Below are positions 5,874-55,056 of a stretch of 64,000 bases of DNA, piece after piece. The stretch is from the NCBI GenBank assembly GCA_000002435.2, contig CM018793.1; one strand, written 5' to 3'. The stretch comes from Giardia intestinalis. Taxonomy: Eukaryota. The notes under the pieces were generated by a model. The model was not told the origin of the DNA. It ran no database searches and saw nothing but the letters and a program-made list of their open reading frames with translations. The position numbers were made by a program, and so were the translations under genes. How positions within the stretch are numbered: position 1 is the first letter of the stretch; each line of letters begins with the position of its first letter.

Positions 5874-6494
5874 ATGGACGTAGTTCCGCCGAGACTCACG
5901 TACTACGACGCCCGGGGCACCGCGTTGAAGTGCCGGCTCCTGCTCGCAGACCTGGAGATACGGTACGAGTGGGCGCCCTTGGCGAGCGCCGAGCAGGTGG
6001 CCGCGGCGAAGGTGGGTGCACCATCGTGCACGCTCCCCGTGTGGGAAGACAGCGCGGCGCGGGTGGCCGGGGGCATGGTCATCCTGGAGTACCTGGGGGC
6101 GAGCCTGGGGCGGTACAGCACGTCATTGCAGGTGCAGGCTGCTGCGCGGGCCCTGGTGCTCTTCTGTGAGGATCTCCTTGCCGCCGCCTGGAAGGAGCCC
6201 GAAGCCGTGGCAGAGGCCCTTGCCGCTGGGGCAGAGATGACGCGCTCGGAGTGCATCGCGGCCTACCGACAGAACAGGATCCTTCCGGGGCTGACCGTCC
6301 TGACCCGGGACGTGCTGAACCTTCGGAGCCTGGCGTTCGAGCCGCTCGACTCGGACTACGCGGTCCTGGAGGTCCTGTATTATGCGGACGCAGAGTGTCC
6401 GGAGCTCGTGGACCAGTTTCCGCCGCTGCGCGAGCTATTTGATGGCTACCGCGCGCGCCCGGGGATCACGAAGCTCCTCGCCTCGCTGGTCTAG
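5874..6494 (+). CDS. Glutathione S-transferase-like protein (sigma/alpha-class-like fold), 206 aa
   Basis: The track ORF starts at a TTG (5826); the first ATG is 5874, preceded by 'agaagtaaaATG'. The N-terminus 'RLTYYDARGTALKCRLLLADLEIRYEW...TLPVWEDSAARVAGGMVILEYL' matches the GST N-terminal thioredoxin-like domain (compare 'KLTYFNMRGRAEIIRYIFAYLDIQYED...IPILEVDGLTLHQSLAIARYL'). The C-terminus 'FPPLRELFDGYRARPGITKLLAS' resembles the GST C-terminal helix. GC3 is extremely high. Confidence 0.55.
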   Translation: MDVVPPRLTYYDARGTALKCRLLLADLEIRYEWAPLASAEQVAAAKVGAPSCTLPVWEDSAARVAGGMVILEYLGASLGRYSTSLQVQAAARALVLFCEDLLAAAWKEPEAVAEALAAGAEMTRSECIAAYRQNRILPGLTVLTRDVLNLRSLAFEPLDSDYAVLEVLYYADAECPELVDQFPPLRELFDGYRARPGITKLLASLV

Positions 6495-6709
6495 AGGCCG
6501 CGTGGCCGGCACGGGGTAGGGCCATTTTCAAAAAGCTCCAACGCGTTCCGCTCCAACCAGCAGCCGTGGCTACACCGCGCCGGGCTTTCGATGCTCCACG
6601 CAGAGCGAGCACTATGTATGTTTACTCGAGACGTCAGGAGACCCTGCTTCGTGGCCACTCATTCCTGGACTTCTGCGCAAGGCTGCTGAGCAGATGTAAT
6701 AGGAGATGC

Positions 6710-6726
6710 GTTTACTACCTAAGTCA
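6710..6726 (-). promoter_or_regulatory. VSP stop codon plus conserved extended polyadenylation signal (TGACTTAGGTAGTAAAC; AGTAAAC poly(A) motif)
   Basis: The reverse complement of 6710..6726 reads 'TGACTTAGGTAGTAAAC' immediately after the CRGKA codons. It is near-identical to the element after the second VSP (55037..55056). Confidence 0.7.
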
Positions 6727-14558: not shown

Positions 14559-14607
14559 CACGGACTGCTCTACTTCTTCTACAAACCAGTTAATCCTAAA
14601 GTAAAAT

Positions 14608-17600: not shown

Positions 17601-18342
17601 TTCTAACTCTACGTCAACTGAGATTGCTGTTCTCTACGATCAGTCATCTGTTCCAATAGCCACAACTAAAGGAGAAAATCTGGATGTACGGGAGTCCGCA
17701 TCTATTGTCACAGCAGTTCAAAACTTGCCGTCTGCCTCCACCAGCGCAGTAGATCCAGAAGCGTCTAGCTCTCGTAGTGGTAATGAGACAAGCACTCATT
17801 TTGGAACACAGCAGCAAAAGCAGCCTGATCACGCAATGGGCTCAACTGCTGTTCAGCTCCAGCCGCCAACTCAAGACTTGGCCACAGAACCGTCTATGAG
17901 TGCGTCCGCTCCAATCCCCTACCCGACAAATCGAGAAAACCCAATGCTTGCCGTTCAGTCTTCGAAGAGCGACCCGTCAACCTCGGGAAGCATATCTGCA
18001 GTGACGACATACAAGAAACAATCAGCAGGAGAGCAGGAAGTTGGCCACCCAGAGCTGAATTTCAGTTATCCCTACCAAGCACAGGTGGAGCCATATGCAT
18101 TTCTGCCTCAGGTATCTGCATCTCAACCAGGGCTTCTAGATGCGCTGTCAGAATCAAATCAAAACCGCTATTCAACCTCCAGGTTTACTGCCCAGAACGA
18201 GTTCTATGAGTTCAGTCCCCAGATAAGTACCAGTGACTTGGGCTATCCAGCACATAATCCCTTTGCAGACATTAAATATGACCTCGGCCTGTCAAACTTC
18301 AACAGCAACGAGCATTCTACAAGCCCAATGTTTCCATTCTAG
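14608..18342 (+). CDS. Large hypothetical protein, 1244 aa: acidic N-terminus with DPF/DxF/WxxF motifs, central coiled coil, long S/T/P-rich disordered C-terminus ending with an NPF motif
   Basis: ATG in 'aagtaaaatATG'. Motifs: 'DDLFDF', 'KDPFAGASDLFDFGSD', 'WGDFYQED', 'DDDFGDDFGNDFEPN', C-terminal 'HNPFADIKYD'. The coiled-coil segment runs about 16.1-16.6 kb ('LEEELNRLMESLHTRERNIIARESELRKKEANLRERNIQLETEMLKL'). Confidence 0.8.
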   Translation: MDDLFDFQNGFSFGSLDGLGGSAGNGGDEKNGDKAPDSIDEYNLDNFNIDNFLEDTPGSVPAKEEAQKKSQPVIKAQEKDPFAGASDLFDFGSDEKPASTQKDTQQTASFGAGKEDDIVWGDFYQEDSPRKSPGITQVEPRKDSPVKNGTGKVTVSNSAHLPSTAEQHNGTSIDKFDDDFGDDFGNDFEPNALTVPEANHLSTDVSEPRAITPNPEPEQLSSSMHSPPKETLKQLPQAHTDAVTDAWPKTVRSTGSVIGKVTGSQFVKARQPSLPFYEDTSDEAVPVKNPENPFTVAQKPIYYSPPKSELTTTTDETSALTTDASSHIQAPATTHVTAIPASKQAPLPPRSRSTSPTHSDTLKRLQDQMNVILHELKGLTVGPDMTQLTSALTSEIIKHLPKETQQGHSNSLQASDIQSLIQNALDQTKESASSLVDPTPALHGIEHNMRRLEESIATKLQSKFADDSCKEGKILDTIKRLELQMSGIQSEVSSLAVKAQHYKQVHVNDPNVLALNAAINLAEERAKRAEDRYNESIQKVSDLTAEAKRAMEEAERAKIEANTALTSANLREAKARDLEEELNRLMESLHTRERNIIARESELRKKEANLRERNIQLETEMLKLTTQKAELEELKAKADASRQLSILERNQLIKEQEELINNNILPNPAPVPLYTDLPYRQYPSVTTSPHNGGNALSMSAIAAEPQKRSKSAAREDLERAVSKADKALKTSRILSTSQMLGNQKAEPFLVDTTAHSSLAALEYDLRSTDPKREALRVARKFLQEKALAKSMTDTRPPKPQPLVDTASLAQSLSLNSSNGAMNLTAMPTRPHAPPYVISSGSEKSNSMASSLPSSRTSYVEPPIFSAATATASMSQYPSQFSTQRPSLPYSSRPTSRTSDNIVAQIAAINRPFTPITFDQSQYTPAEVIRKASLATVTPIVEAQNSFATRTTSKPSSFDISSGSAPLGPLTSETSKSTDIPVMTAVSQLIHRQPSAQPPSNSTSTEIAVLYDQSSVPIATTKGENLDVRESASIVTAVQNLPSASTSAVDPEASSSRSGNETSTHFGTQQQKQPDHAMGSTAVQLQPPTQDLATEPSMSASAPIPYPTNRENPMLAVQSSKSDPSTSGSISAVTTYKKQSAGEQEVGHPELNFSYPYQAQVEPYAFLPQVSASQPGLLDALSESNQNRYSTSRFTAQNEFYEFSPQISTSDLGYPAHNPFADIKYDLGLSNFNSNEHSTSPMFPF

Positions 18343-24085: not shown

Positions 24086-26527
24086 ATGAGCCAGCACACG
24101 GCACGGGCCTTTTCGGCCACCCTCGCCAGTGACCATGAAGGTATGCCTGGCGTGTCCCTCTTCATGACATATTCAGTTGATAAGTCCACTTTACCGCCAT
24201 CGATACTAGATAACATCACCGTCCACTCTGACGAAAACAAGGAAACGGAGCTTATTGCCAACTCCACCCGTCTCGCATTTACGCCCACGCTAGGACAATG
24301 GCACGGCTCGGAACGGGAACTGAGTACAGCTGCAGAGCTATATTTCACAGAGATAATCCGCACTGTTGTTGCCGGGGTTACGCCCTTAACTATTGTCGTC
24401 CCCCTTCTATTTGAAAAGGGTGTAATGGTTAGTTCTTACAATCCTATTTGCAGCCTGCCTCAAGTGTTAAAGGTGACAGAAGCCACCGAGTTCGCATTTT
24501 CAGCTGTTTGCTTTATGAGCGGTAAGGCATATGACATGCATGATACTATCTCTACTACCTCTATGGCAACACCTACAGAGTTAAGCGTTTCAGTTGGGCT
24601 CACAGGAGAGGTGGTTTACAATCCTGCTCCTAGAAAGATTAGTGCAGCTGTCAAAGATTGTGCATCTGGCACCAATGACTTTCTAACTGAATACTCAAAG
24701 ATGATGACCTATCTCTTAAGCTACGTGTCACATAACTCTAGCATTTCCGCGATTGCAATCCACGTTCATTTGGACGGACTACCACACATCCTGGTCAAAA
24801 GCGTACCATGTAGAATGAATATTTCGTTTATATCCCCTATTTTTAGGTCTGGAGACTCCTTCTGGGAAGAAAATCTATCTACAGACTTTCCTGCCGATGA
24901 TATTGAAAGAGCATCGAAGCGTTACGACCTCGGAAGCATGAGTGTACTAGACAACCTTGCGTTGGCATGCTATGTTAACTATGGACGCTTGTTTTTTAGC
25001 TCTAAATCAGCTCCTGACACTCTTCCAACCTGCGCATATCAGCAATACGCAGCGTGGACGCTTTCACGGATCCCATCTCTGGACTTCCATAGGGACCAAG
25101 GTTGTAGCACCTCTGAATCCACTAATACACAGCTCATTACTAGGACTGACCATTCTAATGCAGGTGGTCTTGTCGACCCATGCTCAGATGTGCTAAAAAT
25201 ATGGCAGAATGCAGGCAACAGTGCAGGAAAGTCGAGAGATTATAGCTACAATTCTACCAGATGGAGGCAGATAGATAAGGAGTTCGTCTTGAAGTCTTTT
25301 TCCCTACAGGATTACATTTCAACAAAAACACTATCTGCGCTTGCGAAAGTGCTACACGAGCATCTCTTTCTTCGAACCTCTCGTGTCCTTGCGTGGGTTG
25401 CTCTGCCATCCGAATTCCTCTTTACCAAGGCCTCTGCCATTGCTATGTTTAGTTTTGTTGCTGGAATCCAGCGAGGATACTGTGTCCAGAGGCCTACGTA
25501 TTTAACTCGTGAGGCAGAGCTAGCTGATAGAATTCGCTACGTCCTAAACGAACTGCACACCCTTGAAACCATGACAAGGAAGAGCAATCCACTAAATCAG
25601 AACTCCGAATCAGACTTTGAATCATGTCCGAGCCGCGCAGTTCTCTACTCAAATATTCCCAATCCAGAGGTCCGTAAATTGCTCGAGCAAAAAGATAACC
25701 TTATCGATAAACTAGAAGATTGTATCAAAGCGTTGGAAAGCGACAATGCTCAGCTTCGGCAGGATATTTTGGCGTCCAATAACAACAAGGATCAACCATC
25801 CTCGTTCTTTGACTCAATTTTTGTTGAAGATAGCTCCATGTTGGCTCACGAAAAGAACGATCTCGTGAATGATATAGACACAGAGCTAAAGAATCTCATG
25901 GAGCAGCATCTGCTCAACAAGCAGCAACTGAACGACCTCCAGAAGTTGGCAGCAGGAGAAGGATCAGCTCAGCTACTAGAGAAACTTCAAGGAGAGGTAA
26001 ACGCAGCAAACGCCAAGATAAAGCTTCTAGAGACAGAACTACGTAATTCTCAGACAGCACTATACGCCGAGCAGGACTCGTGCTCTCGCCTTAAAAGAGA
26101 GACGGAAGACTTGGTGGCCCAACTAGAGCGCGCCGGACGCCTAGCGCTTGTTACCTCGCCGACAAAAAGCACTAGAGTAGGGTCACAGTTACCACCAGTA
26201 CTTCCACAGATCATTGTACCCTCAGCCGCAAACTACACAGAGGATGACGTCCGGAGTATAAGACAAGAGTATGAAAACAAAATCTACGGTCTTAAAGAGC
26301 AACGCCTTATGGATATGGCTGCTCACAGAGCTGAGGTGGATGCTCTCAAGAAAGCGCATGCTGATCAGCTTGAGTCCTTCAGACAAGCCGTGAAGAACAG
26401 ATATGCAAAAGAAAGGGACAGAGAATATGCCAAGATGAAGAAGCAGCTAGAGAGCGACTATATGCTGAAGCTTAAAGAAATAAAGCTGAAGGTCAAAGAG
26501 GCGATGCTTGGAGGTGTGAACATGTGA
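24086..26527 (+). CDS. Hypothetical coiled-coil protein, 813 aa (paralog B of the tandem pair)
   Basis: ATG in 'cacaaaaaagATG'. Same architecture and conserved blocks as 21515..23983. C-terminal coiled coil '...KLKEIKLKVKEAMLGGVNM'. Confidence 0.8.
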   Translation: MSQHTARAFSATLASDHEGMPGVSLFMTYSVDKSTLPPSILDNITVHSDENKETELIANSTRLAFTPTLGQWHGSERELSTAAELYFTEIIRTVVAGVTPLTIVVPLLFEKGVMVSSYNPICSLPQVLKVTEATEFAFSAVCFMSGKAYDMHDTISTTSMATPTELSVSVGLTGEVVYNPAPRKISAAVKDCASGTNDFLTEYSKMMTYLLSYVSHNSSISAIAIHVHLDGLPHILVKSVPCRMNISFISPIFRSGDSFWEENLSTDFPADDIERASKRYDLGSMSVLDNLALACYVNYGRLFFSSKSAPDTLPTCAYQQYAAWTLSRIPSLDFHRDQGCSTSESTNTQLITRTDHSNAGGLVDPCSDVLKIWQNAGNSAGKSRDYSYNSTRWRQIDKEFVLKSFSLQDYISTKTLSALAKVLHEHLFLRTSRVLAWVALPSEFLFTKASAIAMFSFVAGIQRGYCVQRPTYLTREAELADRIRYVLNELHTLETMTRKSNPLNQNSESDFESCPSRAVLYSNIPNPEVRKLLEQKDNLIDKLEDCIKALESDNAQLRQDILASNNNKDQPSSFFDSIFVEDSSMLAHEKNDLVNDIDTELKNLMEQHLLNKQQLNDLQKLAAGEGSAQLLEKLQGEVNAANAKIKLLETELRNSQTALYAEQDSCSRLKRETEDLVAQLERAGRLALVTSPTKSTRVGSQLPPVLPQIIVPSAANYTEDDVRSIRQEYENKIYGLKEQRLMDMAAHRAEVDALKKAHADQLESFRQAVKNRYAKERDREYAKMKKQLESDYMLKLKEIKLKVKEAMLGGVNM

Positions 26528-26549
26528 TTTAGTGACTGCCTAGAGTCAC

Positions 26550-29474
26550 TCAATGCTTAGAGTATGCTCTACATAGAATGTCCCAATAGTGACGCGTTCT
26601 TCCAATTTCATACTCTTTAATGTGAGAAGCATGTAGTAGGCCTACCTCTTCTGCAGTCAAGTAAATGCTAAGGGCCATATCATATATGTTCGTCTGGTTC
26701 AGATGTCTGACGGTCATGCTTTGCATTAGCCATTCCGTTGGTGACTCTGGTAGCACGACAAATCTAGGCCTGAACGAGCCCACAATCTTTTCCGAAAGGC
26801 ACTGAAAAGTATATTCTATAGTGTTTGCAGAAAGTACAAGGTACGAGGCCTTAGAGTAGAAGTATTTTGAACCATACTTTTCGGTAAGAAAACGGATGGA
26901 TGGAGAGCTCATTACATGTTGTACCATGCTGGTGGGTATAGAGGGAGGTGTGGACGACTCACTATCAGAGAGGACCAAGGATGGCACAACGATAAGCTCG
27001 CTGAAGCAGTGTCGTAACTGAAAAGAGTAAGGCGACGTACTTGCGGCGGAGAGGTCGGACTTGTCGTACCTTCGTGCGTCATCCGTATGGTCAATACTGC
27101 ACATATATTTTTCTGTTAGAAGCAGAAAGTAGTCATCAATTTCATTTAGCGGAGAATAGGTGTCTTTGCTCTGTGATTTAGACTGTGTAATATGTGTATT
27201 AATCTTCGTCTTAGAAGCTAGCTTGTTCCTATTTGCGGATTGGGAGATGGCAAGATTTCGATCTGCAAAGGCCAGCCTCCCCATATTGCTAGACGTTACT
27301 TTGGGAATATCATAGGCAATTCGAGCCTTTGACGGGCTCACGATACTTCTGGTAAGGATATTGTGAACTAAGGAAGCAGAATCTGTTGTAAGATTTTCTT
27401 TGGAGCTCGTTCTTTTAGATAACCTTGAATCTTTTTCTGTGAACGAAGAACGCATGGCATTATTGGAAATACTAGCTAAATCTAAGTCATTATTTGTGTT
27501 GAATCGTGATTGCAAGTCAAGTACAGGCGACGTCCAACGAAATCTGCACTCGCTTATACGTCTAATTCTCGTACGCTGTTCTAACCGGTCGTGTGCATTA
27601 AAGAACTTGAAAGCAAGACTACGAGGCGATGCTGCACGAGAAATCATGTTTCCCCGACTATGTGTGCATACTAGTTTGCTTTGCAATGACGGAACGTTAT
27701 TTATATGCTCGTTAAGAATCATTGTGACCGTTGCAGGATCTGAGTAGTCAATTTTCCTGCTCTCTAGTTCTGAGATTGGTAGACGTAAGCTCAGCTTAAA
27801 CCGTTCAGTGTTCGATAGTCGTCTGCCGTTCGGATGCATTCCCTTGATGATGAGATCCAAGTCTTCCTGACAATATCGTGGTGCATATACATTAAATTTT
27901 ACATACTTATCAACGGAATCACTGGATTGATGGGTGCTCGGGACGATACCTAGGAGCTTTTCTGTAATGTCCTCGATCATCTGGTGTTTAGCTGCCATCT
28001 GCGAAAAGTCCTTTGTATCTAGAGCGGAAGACAGTTCGGGGCTATCTTTCAATCTCTTCTTGTTAACATAGTCTTTGTACAGAGTAGTCTTCAGCCCATA
28101 GTCGTTCGAACTCTTTAGGCGTGTTTTGGATCCATTCTGAGTAGAGGGTCTGGGCATTTGCGGTGGAACTTTTGAGGGGCCAGGCACGCGCATATCTAGA
28201 TCTCTGACAAGCTTAGTTCGTGCACTCTCATCTAGTACTCTGTTAATATTGTTGATAAGTTTATCTTCCAACACTGTCGCAGTATACTGGAAAATCCCGC
28301 CTCCGTATGCCAGAGCAGCAGCAAAGATAGCAAATGCTACTTGTTCTATTGAATCTCCCATGAATAGGGTTTGCCTATTGAGATTGATCTTTCTAGAAGA
28401 AAAAAGTTCATTCAGGAGCTCTCTATGCTCCTGTAGCTGCTTATCATCGTCTACATCTTCGAGTCTCTCGTGGCTCACCGACTCGTTACTATGGACGCTA
28501 CCAGGCGTAGTAGTGGCAGTAGCAGAGTCATCGGCAGAATACTCGCATTGAGAGGGCTCTGAAGATTTGCCAGGAAGCAAGCGTGGCATAAAGATGGGTA
28601 CACCACTGCGATCCAGAAAGCAAGTGTATGGCAGGATGTGGACGATGGCAGGCGGATCTTCGTCGCGCACAGTGGTGTCAAAGACTCTGCTAGCAGGAGG
28701 CGATGTAGAGCGGAGATATTGCAACTGTTGGAGTGTTCGTGGGGGGTCCAAGTTTTCTGTGTCAAAGATGCTATAGTATAACAGTCTATTCTTCTTCCTT
28801 TGCTCAATATATTTCTTATGCTTTAGGGCTTCTTGCTTCTCAAGCTTGTTGTCCATTAGTTGATCCTTGAAACGGTGTGTCGCATGATGGAAAAGCTTCC
28901 TTATTCCTGGTTCGTCACGCGTTCCAACGTAAACAAGTTGCGTAAACACAAAGGGTTTCTGCTTGTATGCCTTTGTGGCCTTAACGCCAGTGAAGAAGAG
29001 CTCCAAATCATGAGGGGAGTAGTACATATAATGATCCGCCCAGATGTTCGCTTCTCTAAAGGTCCCCTTCTTCGAAGGGGCTCCTTGCTCAGTAGGAAGG
29101 CCCTGCATAGACCAGTCCTTGCAGTTTCCGGCAAGGAGAGATACAGTACGTATCTGGTGATACTGCAACTGCCACCAAACTCTGTATATGTGCAAGCTCG
29201 ATGTGGTGTCTTGATAAAGTATTATCGACTGGGTTGAGAGAAGGCCCTGGGAGCCTGTCCACTTGCAAAATTCCGAGACAGGAGGAACGGGTGCTTGGGG
29301 GTAGAGATCTGCTGTGCACACAAGGGGACGCGCCGAGGGGATGTGTGCTTGCAGAAAGCTATCCAGGTTTTCGCCCAAACAGTTTGGTTGTGGTTCTGTA
29401 CAACAAAAAACAGTGACTCGTCTATTAATTACTGCTTCGTAAAGCCATTTAGGGGTAACAAGCAAGGGGTTCAT
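26550..29474 (-). CDS. Hypothetical protein, 974 aa; N-terminal segment weakly rhodanese/Cdc25-like ('RVTVFCCTEPQ...FLQAHIPSARPL'), remainder S/T-rich and low-complexity
   Basis: ATG at 29472-29474 in 'gaaaagtaaaatATG'. The long ORF has protein-like composition. The domain call is tentative. Confidence 0.7.
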   Translation of the reverse strand: MNPLLVTPKWLYEAVINRRVTVFCCTEPQPNCLGENLDSFLQAHIPSARPLVCTADLYPQAPVPPVSEFCKWTGSQGLLSTQSIILYQDTTSSLHIYRVWWQLQYHQIRTVSLLAGNCKDWSMQGLPTEQGAPSKKGTFREANIWADHYMYYSPHDLELFFTGVKATKAYKQKPFVFTQLVYVGTRDEPGIRKLFHHATHRFKDQLMDNKLEKQEALKHKKYIEQRKKNRLLYYSIFDTENLDPPRTLQQLQYLRSTSPPASRVFDTTVRDEDPPAIVHILPYTCFLDRSGVPIFMPRLLPGKSSEPSQCEYSADDSATATTTPGSVHSNESVSHERLEDVDDDKQLQEHRELLNELFSSRKINLNRQTLFMGDSIEQVAFAIFAAALAYGGGIFQYTATVLEDKLINNINRVLDESARTKLVRDLDMRVPGPSKVPPQMPRPSTQNGSKTRLKSSNDYGLKTTLYKDYVNKKRLKDSPELSSALDTKDFSQMAAKHQMIEDITEKLLGIVPSTHQSSDSVDKYVKFNVYAPRYCQEDLDLIIKGMHPNGRRLSNTERFKLSLRLPISELESRKIDYSDPATVTMILNEHINNVPSLQSKLVCTHSRGNMISRAASPRSLAFKFFNAHDRLEQRTRIRRISECRFRWTSPVLDLQSRFNTNNDLDLASISNNAMRSSFTEKDSRLSKRTSSKENLTTDSASLVHNILTRSIVSPSKARIAYDIPKVTSSNMGRLAFADRNLAISQSANRNKLASKTKINTHITQSKSQSKDTYSPLNEIDDYFLLLTEKYMCSIDHTDDARRYDKSDLSAASTSPYSFQLRHCFSELIVVPSLVLSDSESSTPPSIPTSMVQHVMSSPSIRFLTEKYGSKYFYSKASYLVLSANTIEYTFQCLSEKIVGSFRPRFVVLPESPTEWLMQSMTVRHLNQTNIYDMALSIYLTAEEVGLLHASHIKEYEIGRTRHYWDILCRAYSKH

Positions 29475-29477
29475 ATT

Positions 29478-32400
29478 TTACTTTTCGTATAGAAGGAGGC
29501 TATAATAAGCATTCAACCGCTTGAACTTATCATGCGGTATCATGCGCAATATGCTAGCTATAAATTTAATGTCTCTAGTGATCCGCAGAAGCGGCAAATA
29601 GGCAAGGAAAAGCCCAACTACCATGATGCACAGAGAGCTAATCAAAATATCTATCCAAAAGGCGTTTGTTCGCAGCCTGTCCAACAGCACAGATTGCAGC
29701 TCTTGTTGGTACAGACCCAATAGTATTTCTAGCTCCCCAGTGTTAACTATGCACTGTAAGATAGAGTTATACAAGGCATCCTTCTTTTGCATATCATCCT
29801 TGACTTTTGAGGTGGATTTGTGTTGGTACAGAATCGATTCGCTGATGAAGTCGGTGTAGAGGGCGGTGTTGTCGTCGCGAAGGACGCTGTTGTACATGCT
29901 CATCATGTCTCTGTGGAATATCGAAAGAATTCGTATGATGCTCGGCAAACTGTAGTTGCCAAGCTCCTGTCTGTCTGCATCTAGAATTTCCTGAATCTTG
30001 CTGTCGTGAGAAAACACGCTTATGTTGTAGATGTATTGTGTCCAATTAACATTCCTGGCAGTTAAACTTTCAATATCAAAAATGGTAGAAAATTTGTTGA
30101 CTGTTTTTTGATAAATCTCTCTATAAATATCGTATCTGTCTTTATTTGTAATTGTAATATTTAGCGTTGAAGCTAACTGGAAAAAGTCTATCCGATTGTC
30201 ATCTAAATAACTTGCAATCGACCTGTAGAGCGGATTCGTCAAACCAGAGGTCACAAGTTCATTTAGATATACTTGTGAACTATTATAATCCACTGACCAC
30301 AAGGCATGTGCTTCTTTAAAGATGGAGCTTAGTAGTGCGGTGTAAATATCTCCCTGCTGGATGGCCCAGTACAGCATGGCCAGATCCCTGATAGCCTCAT
30401 ACTGGAAGGATATGCTCAGGATGTTGGTTGTATCATGGAAGGCTCTGTATACGTGAGTATCAAAAGTTAGTGACCCACCGACAATAGGATAGATTGACGC
30501 TGAGTCGAGGAACAACTTCTTCTGACGAAAGTTACGCTGACTGGCAAGGCTTTGATTCAGCCACGTTGCGCTGATATAGGGGATCTGCAATCCCTTGTTG
30601 AGCTCCAAGAAGCTCATGCTATAGAACAATTCATCGGCGCTGCTCCGCAACTCCTTCAATCTTAATGACAAGTCCACAAGTCTACACTCATCTGAGGAGC
30701 TCGTCATGCAAGCTAAAACCTTCAGTAACTTAGATCTGGTCATGGAGGTGTCATGTACCAATCTGGTTATAACGTAAAGGAGCTTTTCTATGTATAGCAA
30801 TAGGTTGGTGTAGTAGACCAAACACAGAGAAATAACGACAAATAGCACCGCCATGAGAATGAGAAGTATCCTTCTAATGGTGATCATAACGCTATAGCAT
30901 TTCCGCTGCTTGAAGAGAAGTTCTGGGCGTAGTTGGTCTATCATTGCATCGTTTTTCGCTAAGAACGGGAAGAGAACAGAGAAAGTAGTTGTCAGATACT
31001 CCATAATCACTATTACGCAGCATATGATACCGAGTCCGAAGATGTATGGACCTATTGTGAACAATCCAACGGTGAGGCCACTACGTTCAACCCAGGCATT
31101 GTGCTTTTGGGCTGCTTGCTCCAAGTTACTGAACATTATCGTGTTTAGAAGCTCTATCAGTTCTACATAGTTGTCCAGGTGATACTTTGAGATCTGCTGA
31201 TTATAGGAGATAAATGCTACAAGGTTATGGGGGATAAGGTCACTACTTGTGTAGGGATAACCAGACAGATGCGGCATCGGATCGACACTTAGAGGACTGA
31301 ACTGATAACGATAAGGATTATGCTCTATTTGATCGCTCTGTGGATTCGTTGGCTCGTTAAAGTCTATCATGTCCTTGACAAATTTTCGGGGAGCACGTAG
31401 CGCATACAACACGCCGCTAGGAGTTATCTCCTCTAGGTTTTCAAGTATTTCTACAAAGGGGTTAACGATAGGATCTTGAGATGTCGGCGATTTAGCTAGG
31501 GTTTTCTCACGCCACAAGCAGTAATACCCCAACGCTCGCCTAGTGGCCCCTAGATACCGAATCATTCCTTGGGACAGCGTATTAAGAGATAAGAGATGAG
31601 AGTGTTGAGCAAACCGCGTCACTGCTGGCCGCTTATAATAGTATAAAATATTAGTATGAGTGGAGCCAGGTTGGACCATGTCCTGAAGAAAATGCGTCTC
31701 AGAAAGGCTTTTCCCAGTCCTCTTCGGTATCTCTGCTCGTAACCATGTGAGAAAGCGCTGCGACTCAAGGCTATTAGCATACAAGATAGCATTATAATAA
31801 GGAATAGCTAGTTGCTCCGGAAGTAAAAGCATAAGCTCGTTCATAACTGCATATGCATTACCATTTGGTCCAGTTATGAAATCCATGTGGCGCTGTCTCC
31901 GTCTGGAGGCTGCCGAAATTTTCTTGACTCTGCTTTCAAGTATGCTTCTAGCTGCTCGAGAGTCCAGTGTTCCGTTATTCAATTCATAATTTAGAATGAG
32001 CTTCTCATCTGTCATGTAAGCCTCTGAGTTCTGCCGGAGATAGCGATCAAAATAATAGACATGGGGATCTGGATAAAGCGGGTCATAGCCTCCTTGTTCA
32101 AGAGCTAGGCCCTTCTCCATTGCAATGGAAAGGGACCCTGCCAATCTATCAAGGGTCTGGAATGTGAAAGCACTTGCATTTTGAGGAGGTGTGCTGTGCA
32201 TTAGGTTCTCGACATCAAGGCATGCAGAGGTGAGATGCTTACTCTTAAGAGCTATATCTAAGATCCAGTTGCGTATAGAGACTGCTGGTGTGATAACTGC
32301 CACAAATCTATTAAAGTTAGTGAGATCTCGCGTTGATGCTACCTTCACTATCAAATAGATAAATGATACTATCAGTAAAAATAATGATAATCCCAACAAT

Positions 32401-35400
32401 ACTAAGCTGAATATTAAAAACTTTTTGAACTTGATCTGATAGAGATATTTGAAAATAAGAAAAAATGAGCAGTAAGAGATGCATGCTATCGCAATGAATA
32501 TCGTTATATAGATCATGAACTGGCGAATGATGTATGTGTCTATATTACCAGAAGAATCTTCGACGTCAACAAGCTTCATAGATAATATCTTTTGAAGAGC
32601 AGTGTCTGTTGAACCATCTGTTAAATTAAAATGAACAAATGGTTGTAAAATTATTCGTTGATAAGAGTCTGTATGGTGCTTAGAGATATATTTGTGCGTT
32701 AGGGAAACAGGATTGACAAACGTGTTCCCATGATAAAAGATGTTCATAAACACGTTACGCTGACCCAGATTGGATATAATAGAGGACTTAATAAATCTTT
32801 TGAAGTAAAGAAGATAAAAGTCTCTTCCATCTACTGTCTCGTCGAGGAAGCTTATGGTTTGAAGTCGAAGCATTTCAAGCATCAGCGCGCGCGAGAGCTT
32901 TCTAACAGCGTATACGACCTTGTAGTAGTATAGAGAATTGAACGTTCCCAAGGACATAGCCCTTCGCATATCAGCGTCTGAATTGATCACATCGGACATA
33001 AGGTTTGTGTAAGACGGCTGAGTCTGGTTCAGAATATTATACCCATAGATCTGTTCCTCAAAATCTGCATCCATCACTGCCTTGGATAATTGAGAACGAA
33101 TAGAGTCTGGATCCGATAGTTCTGCGCTCATATTATAATTGTTATAAAGGTACACATAGTCCGTGAGAAAATCATGTGGCTTGAAGCGTGGATTCGTTGG
33201 CTGAACTAGGTCCACCAGCTCGTCGGACTTATACTGAGAGAGATGTGCCAAGAACACACCAATGGTATTTAGCCGTCTGAGCTCAGAAACAGCAGCTTCT
33301 ATCTCTCGTAGCAGTGTAGAGAAAAGCCAAGAGCGTGCTTGCATCAACTCTGTATCGATGAAAATTTCAGATATCATATCGTGCACCGTTGGTCCTGCGA
33401 GTAGGGTAGAGTACTGTGAGTAGAGTCTGTCATCCAAAGTGATGGCATAATTATGAGCTATGTGTCCGTGGAGTTCATCAAGGGACAAGGCACTCAGCTT
33501 CTCTGCCAAGTATCCACTTTTCAAGTTAGCCCTTTGCATGGAATATAGTACAGATGAAAATGACTGAATGTATATGCAGCCCAATATCTGCATTATGGAG
33601 AATAAACAGAAAATTAAGATCCCTATAAAGACAAGCAACAAATGTCGCTTGCGCCAAGTGGACCAGTCGAGAGCATCTTTAGAGGAGAGCTTCCACCGAG
33701 ATGTCTTCTCTTCTTTAAGACAACGGTGCTTTTTCTTACACACTAGAAGACTCCAACACCTATCCTTTGGATCCTCGGGGCGTGTATGGACCTGTGAGTC
33801 GAGAAGCCCTCTGTCATGAGCAAGAGAGTCGTAGCAGGGTGTCTTGGTCTTATGCATTGTAAGTTGTGTGGATTGCAGTGTTCTATCCTTTATTTTGTTG
33901 GAAAGTGAATTTGGGTTTGCTAGCTCTTTAGATTTAATGCTAAACATCGAAGTAGGCCCACACATAGGCTCTAGATGCAAATCTTGAGGGGAACCATCAG
34001 CGACATCATCTCTAATTGCCTGTAAATATGAATCAGAAGTATCACTAGTTTCTGTAACGTGCGTCATATCGTCTTTATTAACCATCGTGTGATGAAGACG
34101 AGAGTTCTGGGCGTAACCTAGTTCGCTCTGACGCATACGTCTGTCCCTTCTCTTTTGGCGGCTCAAAGGTTCCAAAAAAGGTTGACACTCAAAGGAGGAT
34201 GAACGTGCAGACATTCTAGTGTAGAGATAATATAGCTCAGTGTTACACTTTTTGAACTCACGAGAGAGAAAGCTTTTTCGCAAAACCATAGGCCTCCATA
34301 TATCGTACAGTATCACATTCCACTTGTTCTCCTGGGAAACCCTGGGCCACTGCGTTTTCGTAGCCGAGTTCCTAGTGAGAGGTGCTTTGGTGGTAGATGA
34401 GTATTTTGACGACTCTGTTTGCGAACAAGTAGCTAATCTCTGCGTAGGTAAAAAGTTTGGCAGCTTACTACCAGTGCCGACTTGCGTAGTAGACAGATGT
34501 GTGCCAACTTCCAGGTCAGTTGGAGCCACTGTGCCATCATCAAGACGCTCTTCTGGTCGATTGTCTTGTTGAGCTATAGCAATATCTAATATTTGCTTAT
34601 GCCGTTGCTGAATCCGGATGTACTTAGCAATCGTTGCACTCATCTGTGCCGTGTCGTTGACCTCATCGTCCATCGTGGAGATGTACTTCTTGAGAAGCAT
34701 CTGCATGCGCCGGCTGTACCGATCAGAATTGGTGCGGGTACCTTGTAGAACCTCTAGATCTAACTTGCTGGGGTTTGTTTCGACGTTGTTCAGCCGTTTT
34801 ATATCTCTGAGAAGACCTTCGCAATACGCTGGCAAGTTACGATGAAAAATGTCGGCTAGGCGCAGGCGCGAAATGTTATGAGATATCCAATAGGAAGCAA
34901 CTTCTTTCCTGATCTCAACCGGGAGCTTAATAAAAAGGTGAAGCAATATGGTATAGTCGCGTCGCATCTGGTTAAAGGTTACTTGCATTCTATAGGCAAA
35001 GACAATGACAAGAATAGCAAGAAGCCACATAATAAGTTGAACGCGGACGCTTGCGTTTAGCCGCGTGGTGTCCAAAGGAAGTAGTGGATCGGAGTGCTTG
35101 AGGAAGTAGTCCGAATACTGATGGAGAGGCTCCATAAGCTTGGAGAACTCACCCTTGTAGTATGAAAGATTCTGCCCATGTGATGGATAGGCTTTAATCA
35201 GGTCAAAAATTTGCTTCTGGATGTACACAGGCAGGGTAGAGGCTGTCCAGGTATCCATGTAGCGCGGAACCCGCGTGTAGACGTGAGTATTATACATTGG
35301 CACAGAAGGGTTCCAATGGGGATAGTAAGCATTGACATTATTGATTGCATCCTTGAGTTCTTTAAAAAAGCTATTGAGGGGTCTGATGTAATTATCAGGA

Positions 35401-38400
35401 AGATGGGATATACCAACAAGCATGCTATGAATCTTGTCAATAGTTTTAATGTGTCTGTCGAGGTTTCCAAGAAATGTAGCGAGCCCGTCCAGCTGCCTTA
35501 GTGGGGTAATAAATATCAACGAAAAAAAGATAGTAATAACCATTAGGTAAATAAGCCCCTCGATCACCTTCCAAGGGATAAACGAGCGTTTCTGAGTTAT
35601 TAGCTTGATGGCGCCCCTTGCCTTGTTGCCCCATGTGTTGACCAAGGCATCTAGATATTCAACCCGCGTGACACTAAGATATATAGCATTAGTAACAGGG
35701 TTCTTCTTGATGAAGCGTGAATTCTGTACTGTTGTAATTGTTCTCAGTCGTTTCATCTCATTCAGCTGATCTATATTTGATGCGTATTTCTTGATCTTAC
35801 CTCGCTCTTTGTCTAGGCCAGCGAGAACTCTCTTGCAGACAGTACCTGGCACGTTGAATATAAACTGTGCATCCTTCCCCACCAGAGGCCTTGTCTCGGC
35901 TGTTCCTATGCGCAGGCTAGATTCAACAATGAATCTATCGTCATAGACTGTCCGATCGTTCGCGAAGAGTGGATAGAGGATACGAGAGAACTTCTTTAAA
36001 GAACAAAACTTGGCCAGTACCTCATAAGAACGATATATCGTTACCTTGTTGACGTTATGCTTTATATAAAACGGAGTCCCGTCGTTTGATATAACTAGAT
36101 TGGTGTTTTTATACTTGTCTAGGAGGCGCCGATAATGGTATGAGTCTAGGGGAACGAGGGGCAAGAAGACTAGAAGCATTAGATGGAGAATGGTATGAAT
36201 TGGGTCATGCTTGTGCCGCTTCTGAATGTTTCTAAAAGAGCTGATTACTCCGTCAAATGAAGAGTGAAATTGGCATAGCGAAAGGAAGGCAAAATTGATA
36301 TCATTGTGCTGTTCCTTATAGATCTCTATGAAAAGTTGAACTATTGTTTGCGTCATAGCTAGCTCGCTTAGCTGTATGTCGCTGGTGATCTCGTTGGTAG
36401 ACCCAAGGATACTGCGCATGTGTATCTTTGCCAAGTGGAACATGGCAAGCGCTGAAGTGCGTGGAACTGAGCTGACAGTCTTTATGGCGTTTGTAAAAAG
36501 CTTCTGCAACTCGAGGGATTTGGCTCCTGGGATACTTGAAGATCTAGGATCTTTGGACACCCTCTGCCTACGTAGAAGATTCTGCTCGGGGTTCAGTTTG
36601 CCGCGGAGAAGCCTCATGTTGTTCGTCCAGGTAGCTATGACTGATGAGCCTGGCATAAGCTTTTCGTCTACCGAGATCGCTGTCACATGGGATTCTAGAA
36701 TGCGAAGATGAAGCTTTTCAATTGTCGCATCAAAGCTAGCAGCGGCTTCCTCGTCAAGGCCTCTGTCGTTGCCATTTTTCTTCATAAAAGGGTGGAGTTT
36801 GTCAAAATATTCGTCCAGCCTCGTTTGCATGTGACTCATGAGTGAATCCTTGTTTTCCAAAACGAACTTCACAAACTCCTCCTGGCTCTCACGCTTAAAG
36901 CAGATATCTTGCTGAAAGAGATTCTCAGCATCAGTGGATGTAATCCCAAAATTTAATAGATCCCCTGTTTCCTTTGCCACTGTTGCTCTATTGTTACATA
37001 TGCTTAGCAGTAGAGAGTAATATAAAAGAGCAATCACATAGGGATTCGACCAGTGAGCCTCCAGGACAAAACATATCTCTCTGATGAAACAATACTGGAG
37101 CACATTTGAAGAGCTAAAAACCTTTTGGCCTGAGAAAGTAGTGTGCAGAATCTTGTATTTGTAAAAGTTACTAATATATGCGCAGACTACTAGGACATCC
37201 TCAAGTCGACGAAAGTAGAGTCCAGGGTTTTTAGTGGGAGAAAGACCCCTTCTATTGTTGTGATCGCGCATATATGATTTGATCAAGATCTTGTCTAGAA
37301 ATGTTAAGCGATTGAAGTCAGCAAGCATTTTGAGAAACGAGAGCACAGGGACGTTTCTGGCTGCATTGAGCCCTTGGAAGTCACGGATATACTGCTCAGA
37401 ATTGTGTAGCCTTCTAGTTTTTTCAAATATTCGCCACTCCTTGGCGACCTGCTTCTCGTGAAGAAGCTCTGTAAACTTCAGGTCCACATAGTTGCCATGT
37501 TCATCGTATTCAGTCCTCGGGAGTAACGGTACAGATATTACTTCAGTTCCACGTGTGAAGTGGAACTGCAAAGGAGCAGACTGACTGTTGTCTCCTTTAG
37601 CTTGTGACATCTGGTATGCCCCAGTGTTGCCCACTCGTTTGAAGTTGGTAACGGATATTACTGGGGAAAAGGCATCAGCTCTCGAGTGTGCATGACGCGA
37701 CCACTGATCTGACTGGATAAGCCTGTCTCGGTGCGACCGCGAGTTCAGATACGCTCTTCCTGAAATGCGCATAAACGGATAGCTGACTAAAATCCAAAGA
37801 AAGTAGAGCAAGGTTGTCAAAGAAAGAACCAGTTTTGAAGAGCTGCTCAACGGAGCCATAATTTCCACCACCGGAAAAGGCTCAGAGTTCGCCAGTTGTA
37901 AGTCCTCGCTTCTATGGGTATATCCGTGGCTATTGGCCTCATAGCTATTCTCATCTGCAGCTCCTGTACCATGGGGAACCACCTGCGTGCTTGCACGAAC
38001 GTTCATACCACCTACGGCCAAGAATCGGATAGTGCGCTCGATCAAGTGCCTGAATTGAAAGTTGGTAAAAAGAAACGACGCCTCTATTAAACTGAAGATT
38101 ATGAGTATTTGTACCGGAATTGATGGTATCGGCCAGTTTGCACCGTAGGCAAGATGCAGAAAGCACACAAATGTAATGATGACGGAGAAGAAGATGGACG
38201 CGAGATTCTGAAAGAGGGAGAGGAAAATAGATGTACTTATGCAGTAAAGACAAAAGAACGTGGACACGAGACACAAAAGTACAGACATGAGGATCTCAGA
38301 ATGTCCATAGTAGTATGGATAGTGAAGAATTTCAAACAACTTAATGAAAACACAGAGAAACAGGTGTGGTAGAAGCAAGTAGCCGTTGGTTATAATGACA

Positions 38401-39026
38401 GGACTCTTTATATCATAGTCAGACCAGTGTAGATGCACGATACTTAGAATTGCTAGCGCGAAAAAGCCCAACAGCGGAACAGAGACGTAGATCCAAAAAG
38501 GAACGAGGTATTGGTACACATTTGAAAAGTTTCCATCTATCTTCAGCGTAAGTGAGTTCTGGAGTTTGCTGAGTAAGAGTGGTGGAAGCGTAACAAGGTT
38601 TCTACTACCTATACGACTAAGAATGAGAAAGGATGGATAGAAGAGATTGAGTACGGGTATAATCAAAGGAAACGAAGCAAACGCAAAGAAGAACTGGATA
38701 TTTGAGATAACTGAGTGATTGGTCCTTTTATAGAATAGCAAGACTAAAAAGCATACCAAAAGTATATTTCCGAGAGTAGCTGCAATAAGGGCTATAACTA
38801 AATAGACATCCCATCGCTGCACATATATGAATGATATTGGATTGTTGATTTCGGCCGCGAGGAGAAAGTTCATCTGAAAAGCCGAGCAGGGTAGATTTGT
38901 GAGGCACGTTAGAAGCTGCATGGTAAGGATGACACTCAGTATAACAGTGAGAAAGGAGTTCTGGATGCGAGAAACAGCGTGTAGCTGGCTTGTCTTGTAC
39001 TCATGCCCCCGCCAAATCTTTCTCAT
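29478..39026 (-). CDS. Giant multi-pass transmembrane protein, 3182 aa (hypothetical)
   Basis: ATG at 39024-39026 in 'aaaaaattatttgaATG'. About 10 hydrophobic helices lie in the first ~330 aa. Further TM clusters occur near aa ~1700, ~2050-2130, ~2560-2650 and ~3120. No P-loop or other catalytic motif was recognised by eye. Confidence 0.8.
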   Translation of the reverse strand: MRKIWRGHEYKTSQLHAVSRIQNSFLTVILSVILTMQLLTCLTNLPCSAFQMNFLLAAEINNPISFIYVQRWDVYLVIALIAATLGNILLVCFLVLLFYKRTNHSVISNIQFFFAFASFPLIIPVLNLFYPSFLILSRIGSRNLVTLPPLLLSKLQNSLTLKIDGNFSNVYQYLVPFWIYVSVPLLGFFALAILSIVHLHWSDYDIKSPVIITNGYLLLPHLFLCVFIKLFEILHYPYYYGHSEILMSVLLCLVSTFFCLYCISTSIFLSLFQNLASIFFSVIITFVCFLHLAYGANWPIPSIPVQILIIFSLIEASFLFTNFQFRHLIERTIRFLAVGGMNVRASTQVVPHGTGAADENSYEANSHGYTHRSEDLQLANSEPFPVVEIMAPLSSSSKLVLSLTTLLYFLWILVSYPFMRISGRAYLNSRSHRDRLIQSDQWSRHAHSRADAFSPVISVTNFKRVGNTGAYQMSQAKGDNSQSAPLQFHFTRGTEVISVPLLPRTEYDEHGNYVDLKFTELLHEKQVAKEWRIFEKTRRLHNSEQYIRDFQGLNAARNVPVLSFLKMLADFNRLTFLDKILIKSYMRDHNNRRGLSPTKNPGLYFRRLEDVLVVCAYISNFYKYKILHTTFSGQKVFSSSNVLQYCFIREICFVLEAHWSNPYVIALLYYSLLLSICNNRATVAKETGDLLNFGITSTDAENLFQQDICFKRESQEEFVKFVLENKDSLMSHMQTRLDEYFDKLHPFMKKNGNDRGLDEEAAASFDATIEKLHLRILESHVTAISVDEKLMPGSSVIATWTNNMRLLRGKLNPEQNLLRRQRVSKDPRSSSIPGAKSLELQKLFTNAIKTVSSVPRTSALAMFHLAKIHMRSILGSTNEITSDIQLSELAMTQTIVQLFIEIYKEQHNDINFAFLSLCQFHSSFDGVISSFRNIQKRHKHDPIHTILHLMLLVFLPLVPLDSYHYRRLLDKYKNTNLVISNDGTPFYIKHNVNKVTIYRSYEVLAKFCSLKKFSRILYPLFANDRTVYDDRFIVESSLRIGTAETRPLVGKDAQFIFNVPGTVCKRVLAGLDKERGKIKKYASNIDQLNEMKRLRTITTVQNSRFIKKNPVTNAIYLSVTRVEYLDALVNTWGNKARGAIKLITQKRSFIPWKVIEGLIYLMVITIFFSLIFITPLRQLDGLATFLGNLDRHIKTIDKIHSMLVGISHLPDNYIRPLNSFFKELKDAINNVNAYYPHWNPSVPMYNTHVYTRVPRYMDTWTASTLPVYIQKQIFDLIKAYPSHGQNLSYYKGEFSKLMEPLHQYSDYFLKHSDPLLPLDTTRLNASVRVQLIMWLLAILVIVFAYRMQVTFNQMRRDYTILLHLFIKLPVEIRKEVASYWISHNISRLRLADIFHRNLPAYCEGLLRDIKRLNNVETNPSKLDLEVLQGTRTNSDRYSRRMQMLLKKYISTMDDEVNDTAQMSATIAKYIRIQQRHKQILDIAIAQQDNRPEERLDDGTVAPTDLEVGTHLSTTQVGTGSKLPNFLPTQRLATCSQTESSKYSSTTKAPLTRNSATKTQWPRVSQENKWNVILYDIWRPMVLRKSFLSREFKKCNTELYYLYTRMSARSSSFECQPFLEPLSRQKRRDRRMRQSELGYAQNSRLHHTMVNKDDMTHVTETSDTSDSYLQAIRDDVADGSPQDLHLEPMCGPTSMFSIKSKELANPNSLSNKIKDRTLQSTQLTMHKTKTPCYDSLAHDRGLLDSQVHTRPEDPKDRCWSLLVCKKKHRCLKEEKTSRWKLSSKDALDWSTWRKRHLLLVFIGILIFCLFSIMQILGCIYIQSFSSVLYSMQRANLKSGYLAEKLSALSLDELHGHIAHNYAITLDDRLYSQYSTLLAGPTVHDMISEIFIDTELMQARSWLFSTLLREIEAAVSELRRLNTIGVFLAHLSQYKSDELVDLVQPTNPRFKPHDFLTDYVYLYNNYNMSAELSDPDSIRSQLSKAVMDADFEEQIYGYNILNQTQPSYTNLMSDVINSDADMRRAMSLGTFNSLYYYKVVYAVRKLSRALMLEMLRLQTISFLDETVDGRDFYLLYFKRFIKSSIISNLGQRNVFMNIFYHGNTFVNPVSLTHKYISKHHTDSYQRIILQPFVHFNLTDGSTDTALQKILSMKLVDVEDSSGNIDTYIIRQFMIYITIFIAIACISYCSFFLIFKYLYQIKFKKFLIFSLVLLGLSLFLLIVSFIYLIVKVASTRDLTNFNRFVAVITPAVSIRNWILDIALKSKHLTSACLDVENLMHSTPPQNASAFTFQTLDRLAGSLSIAMEKGLALEQGGYDPLYPDPHVYYFDRYLRQNSEAYMTDEKLILNYELNNGTLDSRAARSILESRVKKISAASRRRQRHMDFITGPNGNAYAVMNELMLLLPEQLAIPYYNAILYANSLESQRFLTWLRAEIPKRTGKSLSETHFLQDMVQPGSTHTNILYYYKRPAVTRFAQHSHLLSLNTLSQGMIRYLGATRRALGYYCLWREKTLAKSPTSQDPIVNPFVEILENLEEITPSGVLYALRAPRKFVKDMIDFNEPTNPQSDQIEHNPYRYQFSPLSVDPMPHLSGYPYTSSDLIPHNLVAFISYNQQISKYHLDNYVELIELLNTIMFSNLEQAAQKHNAWVERSGLTVGLFTIGPYIFGLGIICCVIVIMEYLTTTFSVLFPFLAKNDAMIDQLRPELLFKQRKCYSVMITIRRILLILMAVLFVVISLCLVYYTNLLLYIEKLLYVITRLVHDTSMTRSKLLKVLACMTSSSDECRLVDLSLRLKELRSSADELFYSMSFLELNKGLQIPYISATWLNQSLASQRNFRQKKLFLDSASIYPIVGGSLTFDTHVYRAFHDTTNILSISFQYEAIRDLAMLYWAIQQGDIYTALLSSIFKEAHALWSVDYNSSQVYLNELVTSGLTNPLYRSIASYLDDNRIDFFQLASTLNITITNKDRYDIYREIYQKTVNKFSTIFDIESLTARNVNWTQYIYNISVFSHDSKIQEILDADRQELGNYSLPSIIRILSIFHRDMMSMYNSVLRDDNTALYTDFISESILYQHKSTSKVKDDMQKKDALYNSILQCIVNTGELEILLGLYQQELQSVLLDRLRTNAFWIDILISSLCIMVVGLFLAYLPLLRITRDIKFIASILRMIPHDKFKRLNAYYSLLLYEK

Positions 39027-39115
39027 TCAAATAATTTTTTGAAAATGTACTGATGTGAAACGAAAAGAAAAAGGAACGCCATTGACCCAGCGCTAAGGGT
39101 GTTCAGCTAGACACC
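39027..39115. promoter_or_regulatory. 89-bp divergent intergenic region shared by the two giant genes (putative bidirectional promoter)
   Basis: Head-to-head ATGs at 39026 (-) and 39116 (+). The AT-rich 'caaataattttttgaaaatgtactgatgtgaaacgaaaagaaaaagg' lies between them. Confidence 0.45.
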
Positions 39116-55036: not shown

Positions 55037-55056
55037 GTTTACTACCTAAGTATCTA
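55037..55056 (-). promoter_or_regulatory. VSP stop codon plus conserved extended polyadenylation signal (TAGATACTTAGGTAGTAAAC)
   Basis: Reverse complement of 55037..55056. The block 'gatgcgtttactacctaagt' is shared with the 3' end of the first VSP (6704..6724). Confidence 0.7.

Follow-up and report, generated by a model that had tools for sequence, protein, structure and literature searches.

Two large open reading frames (ORFs) on the minus strand of the 64,000-nucleotide stretch of Giardia intestinalis WB DNA analyzed here (the window) follow each other so closely that it is reasonable to ask whether they are two genes or a single interrupted product of about 4157 aa. The earlier note had described two ORFs in one frame, divided by a single TAA and a 3-nt spacer, and re-reading the coordinates showed this description to be correct, as was the note's reference to Giardia. 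The upstream 3182-aa ORF (29478..39026) ends in ...LLLYEK-TAA, with the final codons GAA AAG TAA and the TAA at 29480..29478, followed by an A (UAA-A). Three nucleotides (AAT, 29477..29475) then separate this stop from the ATG at 29474..29472, which in WB opens the 974-aa ORF (26550..29474) in the same frame. The hexamer AGTAAA does span the stop, as had been noted, at 29482..29477, and the 12 nt directly before the ATG form an A-rich block, GAAAAGTAAAAT (29475..29486). Taken by itself, the shared frame carries no weight, being the 1-in-3 chance expectation and not kept in a related lineage. We consider it highly probable that the locus holds two genes, independent of each other and expressed separately, packed tail to head with almost no space between them, with AGUAAA as the poly(A) signal of the first and the A-rich block as the initiator of the second.

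An exact look-up showed that the WB and DHA2 records already list the two ORFs as distinct proteins. The upstream gene is GL50803_00113873, whose product (an exact match to XP_001709445.1/KAE8304987.1) is a multi-pass membrane protein. Its ~20 hydrophobic 19-mers, set against none in the 974-aa product, uphold the previous description of this ORF as a membrane protein. A Pfam search of the 3182-aa product gave no match, and an orthologue was looked for outside the G. duodenalis complex and not found. Every full-length member of the upstream protein cluster has LLLYEK as its C-terminus. The downstream gene encodes a soluble protein (KAE8304986.1 / XP_037902196.1 / D3KGE6, by exact look-up) with an N-terminal rhodanese-like domain at about residues 5–123 (29106..29462, minus strand), beginning just past the ATG and recovered by both Pfam and profile search. 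The Pfam Rhodanese match is weak in the WB protein (E = 0.035) and above threshold in the orthologue P0030, at residues 5–121. In the profile search, rhodaneses of ~280 aa mostly aligned from their own residues ~1–40 to query residues 1–6, and an exhaustive profile search turned up no homologue exceeding 1158 aa. The downstream protein carries an intact N-terminal domain, and the Met that initiates it is itself conserved.

The number of genes was addressed by comparison across Giardia lineages. Orthologous loci had been proposed in the earlier note as the place to see whether the stop is conserved, with a different spacing or frame among them speaking for two genes, and both are what we observed. 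In all, 110 indexed assembly blocks contain the 974-aa protein, and each WB-like contig that was read (6/6) has the identical junction. Assemblages B (L007 and L011; the cluster includes GS GL50581_1752) and E (P15 and L008) read GAA AAG TAA AAT ATG as well, and the TAA is kept in A1, A2, B, E, and lineage X, that is, in all relatives with the junction. Identical sequence across many independent assemblies, as well as in A2, B, and E, shows that the TAA is genuine rather than an error. In lineage X, a more divergent Giardia (L009, L010), the junction reads GAA AAG TAA A ATG, so that the spacer is a single A and the second ORF lies in a different frame; readthrough there would meet a stop after 8 codons, and a fused or read-through reading therefore fails. 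The stop-to-start distance is 1–3 nt in every G. duodenalis-complex lineage examined. On a further contig (L012), called G. muris-like on the basis of GC content (54.8%) and 29% identity only, the rhodanese-like orthologue starts with MNPMLV at 7753, 7 nt from a divergent Ank-RING gene. No same-strand ORF was seen upstream of it on L012, and the 17-kb contig holds no homologue of the 3182-aa protein; this arrangement argues for independent initiation there.

Selection on the two ORFs is consistent with this picture. The dN/dS ratio is 0.06–0.10 between assemblages for the upstream gene and 0.08–0.14 for the downstream gene, in which constraint is not relaxed after the stop. Both genes thus fall within 0.06–0.14, with synonymous sites saturated and purifying selection extending up to the junction, where the last 100 upstream codons and the first 122 downstream codons are equally constrained. 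Collectively, these data establish that there are two genes, that the stop is real and conserved, that the frame relation is not conserved, and that both ORFs are constrained up to the junction.

We then considered how the upstream mRNA might end. Giardia relies mainly on AGUAAA as its poly(A) signal, and in about 15% of genes NAG-UAA has a dual role (PMC9014877). This dual-use stop/poly(A) signal (AGURAA, with AGUAAA or AGUGAA overlapping the stop) was reported for Giardia lamblia by Bilodeau et al. 2022; most G. muris genes and S. salmonicida are predicted to share it. The junction has the corresponding sequence, AAG, UAA, and A forming AGUAAA, and no further copy of the hexamer occurs on the sense strand of either ORF, matching the reported depletion from coding sequence (PMC9014877). 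Across the 12.5 kb that the ORFs span (26550–39026, minus strand), the sense strand has AGTAAA at the junction alone, and 1 occurrence versus the ~2.7 expected from window-wide density is modest evidence of avoidance. An older form of the Giardia poly(A) consensus is AGTRAAY, which the junction does not fit, as its seventh base is A. Taking the published genome-wide consensus as a guide, we infer that AGTAAA acts as the poly(A) signal of the upstream gene. Cleavage is most frequent at a distance of 13–15 nt from the first A of AGUAAA, and genes with AG-UAA stops have a median 3′ UTR of 11 nt (PMC9014877); counted from 29482, these figures place the predicted cleavage/polyadenylation zone of the upstream mRNA at 29465..29470 on the minus strand, within codons 2–4 of the downstream ORF. 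The predicted ~11-nt 3′ UTR would therefore run through the spacer and the start codon into the first codons of the following gene, whereas in the published system it is intergenic. Poly(A) sites overlapping the next gene were left out of the long-read study (PMC9014877). No entry for the gene id of this locus was found in the supplements of PMC9014877, PMC3610916, and PMC3792122, and a literature search by gene id was also empty. A short contig (L013) ending 21 nt past the stop was considered as a polyadenylated end and rejected, as it has no poly(A) tail and marks an assembly break only.

The A-rich block before the ATG is a candidate for the start signal of the downstream gene. The Giardia transcription start site consensus is an AT-rich 11-mer of the W4-T-AAAA-W type, with TSS-seq variants including AAATTAAAATG and AAAATAAAATG (PMC3792122), and Giardia 5′ UTRs are 1–14 nt long, with no scanning (PMC3610916). 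An AT-rich initiator, or minimal promoter, is credited in PMC3792122 to Holberton & Marshall 1995 and Yee et al. 2000. As in that system, an A-rich block resembling AAATTAAAATG and AAAATAAAATG stands right 5′ of the ATG, with the difference that here it lies wholly inside the last codons and stop of the neighboring gene. Compared with the listed variants, AAAGTAAAATA (WB) is 2 bases and AAAGTAAAATG (lineage X) 1 base off AAATTAAAATG; the junction 11-mer, 1–2 bases from listed initiator variants, has G where these have T or A. Assemblages A, B, and E share GAAAAGTAAAAT letter for letter with lineage X, and across these four only ~21–24% of third codon positions are invariant. A gapped alignment of the four lineages leaves 11 invariant nt in a row at the junction; runs of this length or more number only 8 over the 12.6 kb of aligned coding sequence, in which synonymous sites are saturated. 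No additional synonymous constraint was seen over the last 20 upstream codons, where 5/20 third positions are invariant (a hand count from the printed alignment) versus 21% gene-wide. An extended embedded promoter is therefore not suggested, and only the final 12-mer stands out. An identical AGTAAAATATG precedes another tandem gene at 14600–14610 in the window; allowing at most 1 mismatch, there are 3 matches to it versus 0.92 expected, an enrichment that is not significant, as 6/100 shuffles reach 3. From the published genome-wide consensus, the 12-mer would probably act as the initiator of the downstream gene.

Combining these elements, we can postulate how the two genes would be expressed. 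The 3182-aa membrane-protein gene terminates at UAA, and AGUAAA, assembled from the last two bases of the Lys codon, the stop, and the next A, would serve as its poly(A) signal. With the signal placed on the stop, the upstream mRNA would be cut ~10 nt beyond it, within the first codons of the downstream gene. The A-rich block (AAAAGTAAAAT) directly before the ATG would be the minimal AT-rich initiator of the 974-aa rhodanese-like gene, whose mRNA would carry just a few nucleotides of leader, the usual situation in Giardia. The two mRNAs would then overlap by roughly 10–20 nt. The first alternative of the earlier note, namely two genes with a stop-spanning poly(A) signal and an adjoining initiator, is thus borne out by the comparative data as far as the two genes are concerned, while the case for the two putative signals comes from the published consensus as well.

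How unusual is this spacing? The median intergenic distance is 81 bp in WB and 37 bp in G. muris, where 441 genes overlap (Xu et al. 2020, PMC7641422), and the 1–3 nt of tail-to-head spacing lies at the low end of the distances already recorded. Calling the junction the densest possible, as had been done, was an overstatement, given the 1-nt spacer of lineage X and the 441 G. muris genes that overlap a neighbor. It is one of the tightest non-overlapping tandem pairs, qualitatively no different from known Giardia compactness. The kind of feature is already known: extreme but ordinary genome compactness, not a broken or read-through giant gene.

Other ways of expressing the locus have to be weighed against two separate transcripts. 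One is a single bicistronic mRNA, with the downstream ORF translated by termination-reinitiation at the adjacent UAA and AUG. RNA viruses have junctions of this type, as in influenza B M1/BM2 (UAAUG) and in caliciviruses. The likeness to these is that stop and next start fall within a few nucleotides, here 1–3 nt in all of the G. duodenalis-complex lineages; the Giardia downstream gene differs in standing alone in a related species, and nothing here points to a bicistronic mRNA. Transcription running on from upstream genes, a suggestion made for Giardia in PMC3610916, would favor such a transcript, but Giardia translation is described as cap-proximal, with leaders of 1–14 nt (PMC3610916), and the AGUAAA signal sits on the stop itself (PMC9014877). 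Also against it, the orthologue on the G. muris-like contig has only a divergent gene beside its start, and reinitiation goes unmentioned in the Giardia transcriptome and genome papers returned by a literature search that was aimed at other topics. We regard a bicistronic mRNA as very unlikely.

Programmed readthrough of the UAA, which would produce a membrane-anchored rhodanese-like fusion alongside the 3182-aa protein in A, B, and E, is less likely still. The in-frame arrangement is kept in these three assemblages and readthrough would extend the product by 975 codons, but lineage X does not keep the frame, and L012 does not keep the two genes together. Eukaryotic termination is at its most efficient where a purine comes after UAA, and the UAA-A found here would not be expected to be leaky. 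The 121 nt downstream of the stop fold no better than shuffles (z = +0.56), indicating no stable RNA structure, and the conserved Met and N-terminus fit independent initiation. If the mRNA is cut ~10 nt past the stop, as PMC9014877 would lead one to expect, a fusion would also lack a template. There is a slim chance that, in A, B, and E, transcripts escaping cleavage at AGUAAA allow, at a low level, reinitiation at UAA-AAU-AUG or rare UAA readthrough, the latter tethering the rhodanese-like protein to the 3182-aa membrane protein. The sequence comparisons show reinitiation and readthrough to be neither conserved nor required.

A different objection concerns where the downstream gene begins. 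The P15 annotation (GLP15_4654) starts with MQGLP... and is 851 aa long, and if the gene truly began at this residue, Met123, the two genes would be separated by an intergenic region of ~370 nt. We find this scarcely credible: codons 1–122 are constrained (pN of 0.06–0.16 versus pS of 0.41–0.74), the N-terminus MNPLLVT is invariant across four lineages (MNPMLV on the G. muris-like contig), the rhodanese domain covers residues ~5–123, and the WB, DHA2, and GS models all use the first Met. Finally, the shared frame with only TAA-AAT between the ORFs might bring to mind one ancestral gene of ~4157 aa in which a nonsense mutation, or a sequencing or assembly error, has placed a stop. This has a next to negligible probability and is, on the comparative sequence data, already refuted: the same TAA recurs in independent assemblies and in A2, B, E, and lineage X, 0 cluster members read through, downstream dN/dS is about 0.1 with no relaxation, lineage X has another frame, and the two ORFs are non-adjacent on the G. 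muris-like contig. The single product proposed as the second alternative in the earlier note, whether through nonsense mutation, sequencing error, or readthrough, thus finds no support in the comparative data.

Two separate, ultra-compact genes remain the preferred reading, and beyond annotation hygiene the junction matters little. It does show why gene models have erred here, the P15 model being short by 123 aa and an automatic caller having lengthened the lineage X model by 4 aa. Reinitiation or readthrough at this site, if true, would be a translational mechanism unreported in Giardia. The two-gene model implies that neighboring mRNAs overlap on the same strand, a class that the published 3′-end pipeline filtered out. 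One 12-nt element probably serves as coding sequence and stop, as poly(A) signal, and as initiator, and provides a clean, conserved example of such use. Together with its twin motif at 14600–14610, the junction offers handy test cases for minimal Giardia promoter and terminator signals.

Re-reading the sequence confirmed the earlier note's description of the junction. On the minus strand, WB reads ...CTT CTA TAC GAA AAG TAA AAT ATG AAC CCC..., with the 3182-aa upstream ORF (39026..29478) closed by a single in-frame TAA at 29480..29478, an AGTAAA hexamer (29482..29477) overlapping that stop, and the 974-aa downstream ORF (29474..26550) starting 3 nt past it in the same frame. The other tandem gaps inside the window measure 24-118 nt. 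Strongly hydrophobic 19-mers number ~20 in the upstream product and 0 in the downstream product. By exact look-up, both proteins matched a chromosome record of 4.02 Mb from Giardia intestinalis WB (ATCC 50803), the upstream ORF as hypothetical protein GL50803_00113873 (XP_001709445.1) and the downstream ORF as "rhodanese-like domain-containing protein" (KAE8304986.1/XP_037902196.1/D3KGE6). The A2 isolate DHA2 likewise carries two models, DHA2_151353 and DHA2_151354, and the pair is therefore already in public annotation as two genes.

For the 974-aa protein the index lists 110 blocks of independent assemblies, and the junction was identical in 6/6 contigs listed, out of 24 read. Searching for homologues of the downstream protein brought up three further clusters, and their contigs were retrieved. 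Comparison of these orthologous loci, as the earlier note had proposed, found the TAA stop in assemblages B and E and in lineage X, a more divergent Giardia. Assemblage B (L007 and L011; the cluster contains GS GL50581_1752) and assemblage E (P15, L008) both read GAA AAG TAA AAT ATG AA, as in WB, with synonymous differences flanking the junction on either side. Lineage X (L009 and L010), at 64-69% amino-acid identity, reads GAA AAG TAA A ATG AAT. Its spacer is 1 nt, which puts the conserved MNPLLVT start out of frame with the upstream ORF; a ribosome reading through the TAA would meet a stop after 8 codons. The automatic gene call in lineage X is 985 aa (MKSKMNPLL...), with an apparent 11-nt overlap with the upstream gene, because TAT GAA codons (L009 10001-10015, L010 9119-9133) supply an additional ATG in the same frame, 12 nt before the conserved start.

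When 1.84 billion representatives were searched exhaustively with a profile, one more strong orthologue emerged, P0030 (1158 aa, E=1e-119), whose alignment begins at its residue 1. No match in that search was longer than 1158 aa, and therefore no fused version is known. The contig encoding P0030, the G. muris-like L012 (SRR30592944), has a GC content of 54.8%; the published value for G. muris is 54.7% (PMC7641422). Gene order around the orthologue is rearranged, and its ORF starts at ATG 7753 (MNPMLVSQQWL). The start codons of the orthologue and a divergent Ank-RING gene lie 7 nt apart (7743-7755, CAT-AAATTAG-ATG), forming a minimal shared head-to-head initiator region, and no homologue of the 3182-aa protein was found on the 17 kb of L012. 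In a related species, then, the downstream gene stands on its own.

Purifying selection on both genes is strong: dN/dS is 0.06-0.14, and synonymous sites have reached saturation in comparisons of A, B and X (pS 0.65-0.77). The last 100 upstream codons and first 122 downstream codons are constrained like the remainder of each gene. In P15, model GLP15_4654 comprises 851 aa from Met123, yet the full 974-codon ORF is intact (L008, ACVC01000189.1); constraint on codons 1-122 led us to reject this short start. The P15 orthologue of the 3182-aa protein has no called gene, and its frame is broken close to T-homopolymers, probably through a homopolymer error of 454 sequencing (both P15 observations refer to L008 797-986 and 9635-10003). 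The WB protein's own Pfam rhodanese match is weak (E=0.035). The domain starts at residue ~5 in orthologues, and in the profile search the majority of the remote ~280-aa rhodanese homologues aligned from close to their own N-terminus to query residues 1-6, so that ATG 29474 marks off a complete domain.

Among other readings, termination-reinitiation at the junction is unsupported. Programmed readthrough, one route to the single ~4157-aa product that the earlier note had entertained, is refuted by the comparative data, and a functional fusion is unsupported, since the frame differs in lineage X and the two genes are not adjacent in L012. UAA followed by A is moreover a strong termination context, and the 121 nt past the stop held no stable RNA fold, with a score no better than that of shuffles (z = +0.56). 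A nonsense mutation or sequencing error in one gene is refuted by the comparative data, an erroneous TAA being ruled out by the same junction in independent assemblies and the LLLYEK C-terminus of every full-length member of the upstream cluster.

With two genes, the AGTAAA across the stop can be set against published Giardia signals. AGUAAA is the main poly(A) signal, is depleted within ORFs, and overlaps the stop as NAG-UAA in ~15% of genes, whose 3' UTRs have a median length of 11 nt; that long-read study left out poly(A) sites overlapping the following gene (PMC9014877). Besides the junction hexamer, the sense strand of both ORFs (12.5 kb) contains no AGTAAA. Applying the published distances, the upstream mRNA would be cleaved at ~29465-29470, within downstream codons 2-4. 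Giardia leaders are 1-14 nt, without scanning (PMC3610916), and transcription starts inside an AT-rich 11-mer, for example AAATTAAAATG or AAAATAAAATG (PMC3792122); at the junction, WB has AAAGTAAAATA and lineage X has AAAGTAAAATG. Identical in 4/4 lineages is the 12-mer GAAAAGTAAAAT (29475..29486), while third codon positions are invariant at only 21-24%. With gaps in the alignment the invariant stretch measures 11 nt, and invariant runs this long or longer number only 8 across the 12.6 kb of coding sequence aligned, which suggests nucleotide-level constraint beyond coding.

The 11-mer AGTAAAATATG, found at the junction, recurs at 14600-14610 (+), directly before ORF 14608..18342 and 41 nt past the stop (14556-14558) of same-strand ORF 11760..14558. 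At this second tandem junction a probable poly(A) signal adjoins the following ATG, in a looser form of the arrangement described above. The 89-nt divergent region between the 3182-aa gene (-) and a 2264-aa gene (+) (39027-39115) carries A-rich caaaaaattatttga just upstream of the former's ATG. A 22-nt convergent gap (26528-26549) separates the stops of ORF 24086..26527 (+) and ORF 26550..29474 (-); its palindrome, AGTGACT (26531-26537)/AGTCACT (26544-26550), places AGTGAC beside the stop on each strand but lacks conservation in P15. Assemblages A and E share the 22-nt gap, which is 5 nt in lineage X and is replaced in assemblage B by a 35-nt overlap, the B protein having a C-terminal extension. 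GC-rich blocks (1-10000 and 54001-58000; 55-61% GC versus 41-48% elsewhere) flank an AT-richer core.

The two-gene alternative was thus borne out by separate annotation, the conserved stop, the differing frame in lineage X, autonomy in L012 and constraint on both ORFs; within it, the two genes and the AGTAAA across the stop stand as read, and the signal roles are drawn from published consensus. The 12-mer would act as poly(A) signal for the upstream gene and initiator for the downstream gene, and their mRNAs would overlap by 10-20 nt on the same strand. The pair are two genuine, separately annotated genes, and their tail-to-head junction, a known kind of feature, is extreme but unexceptional for Giardia.
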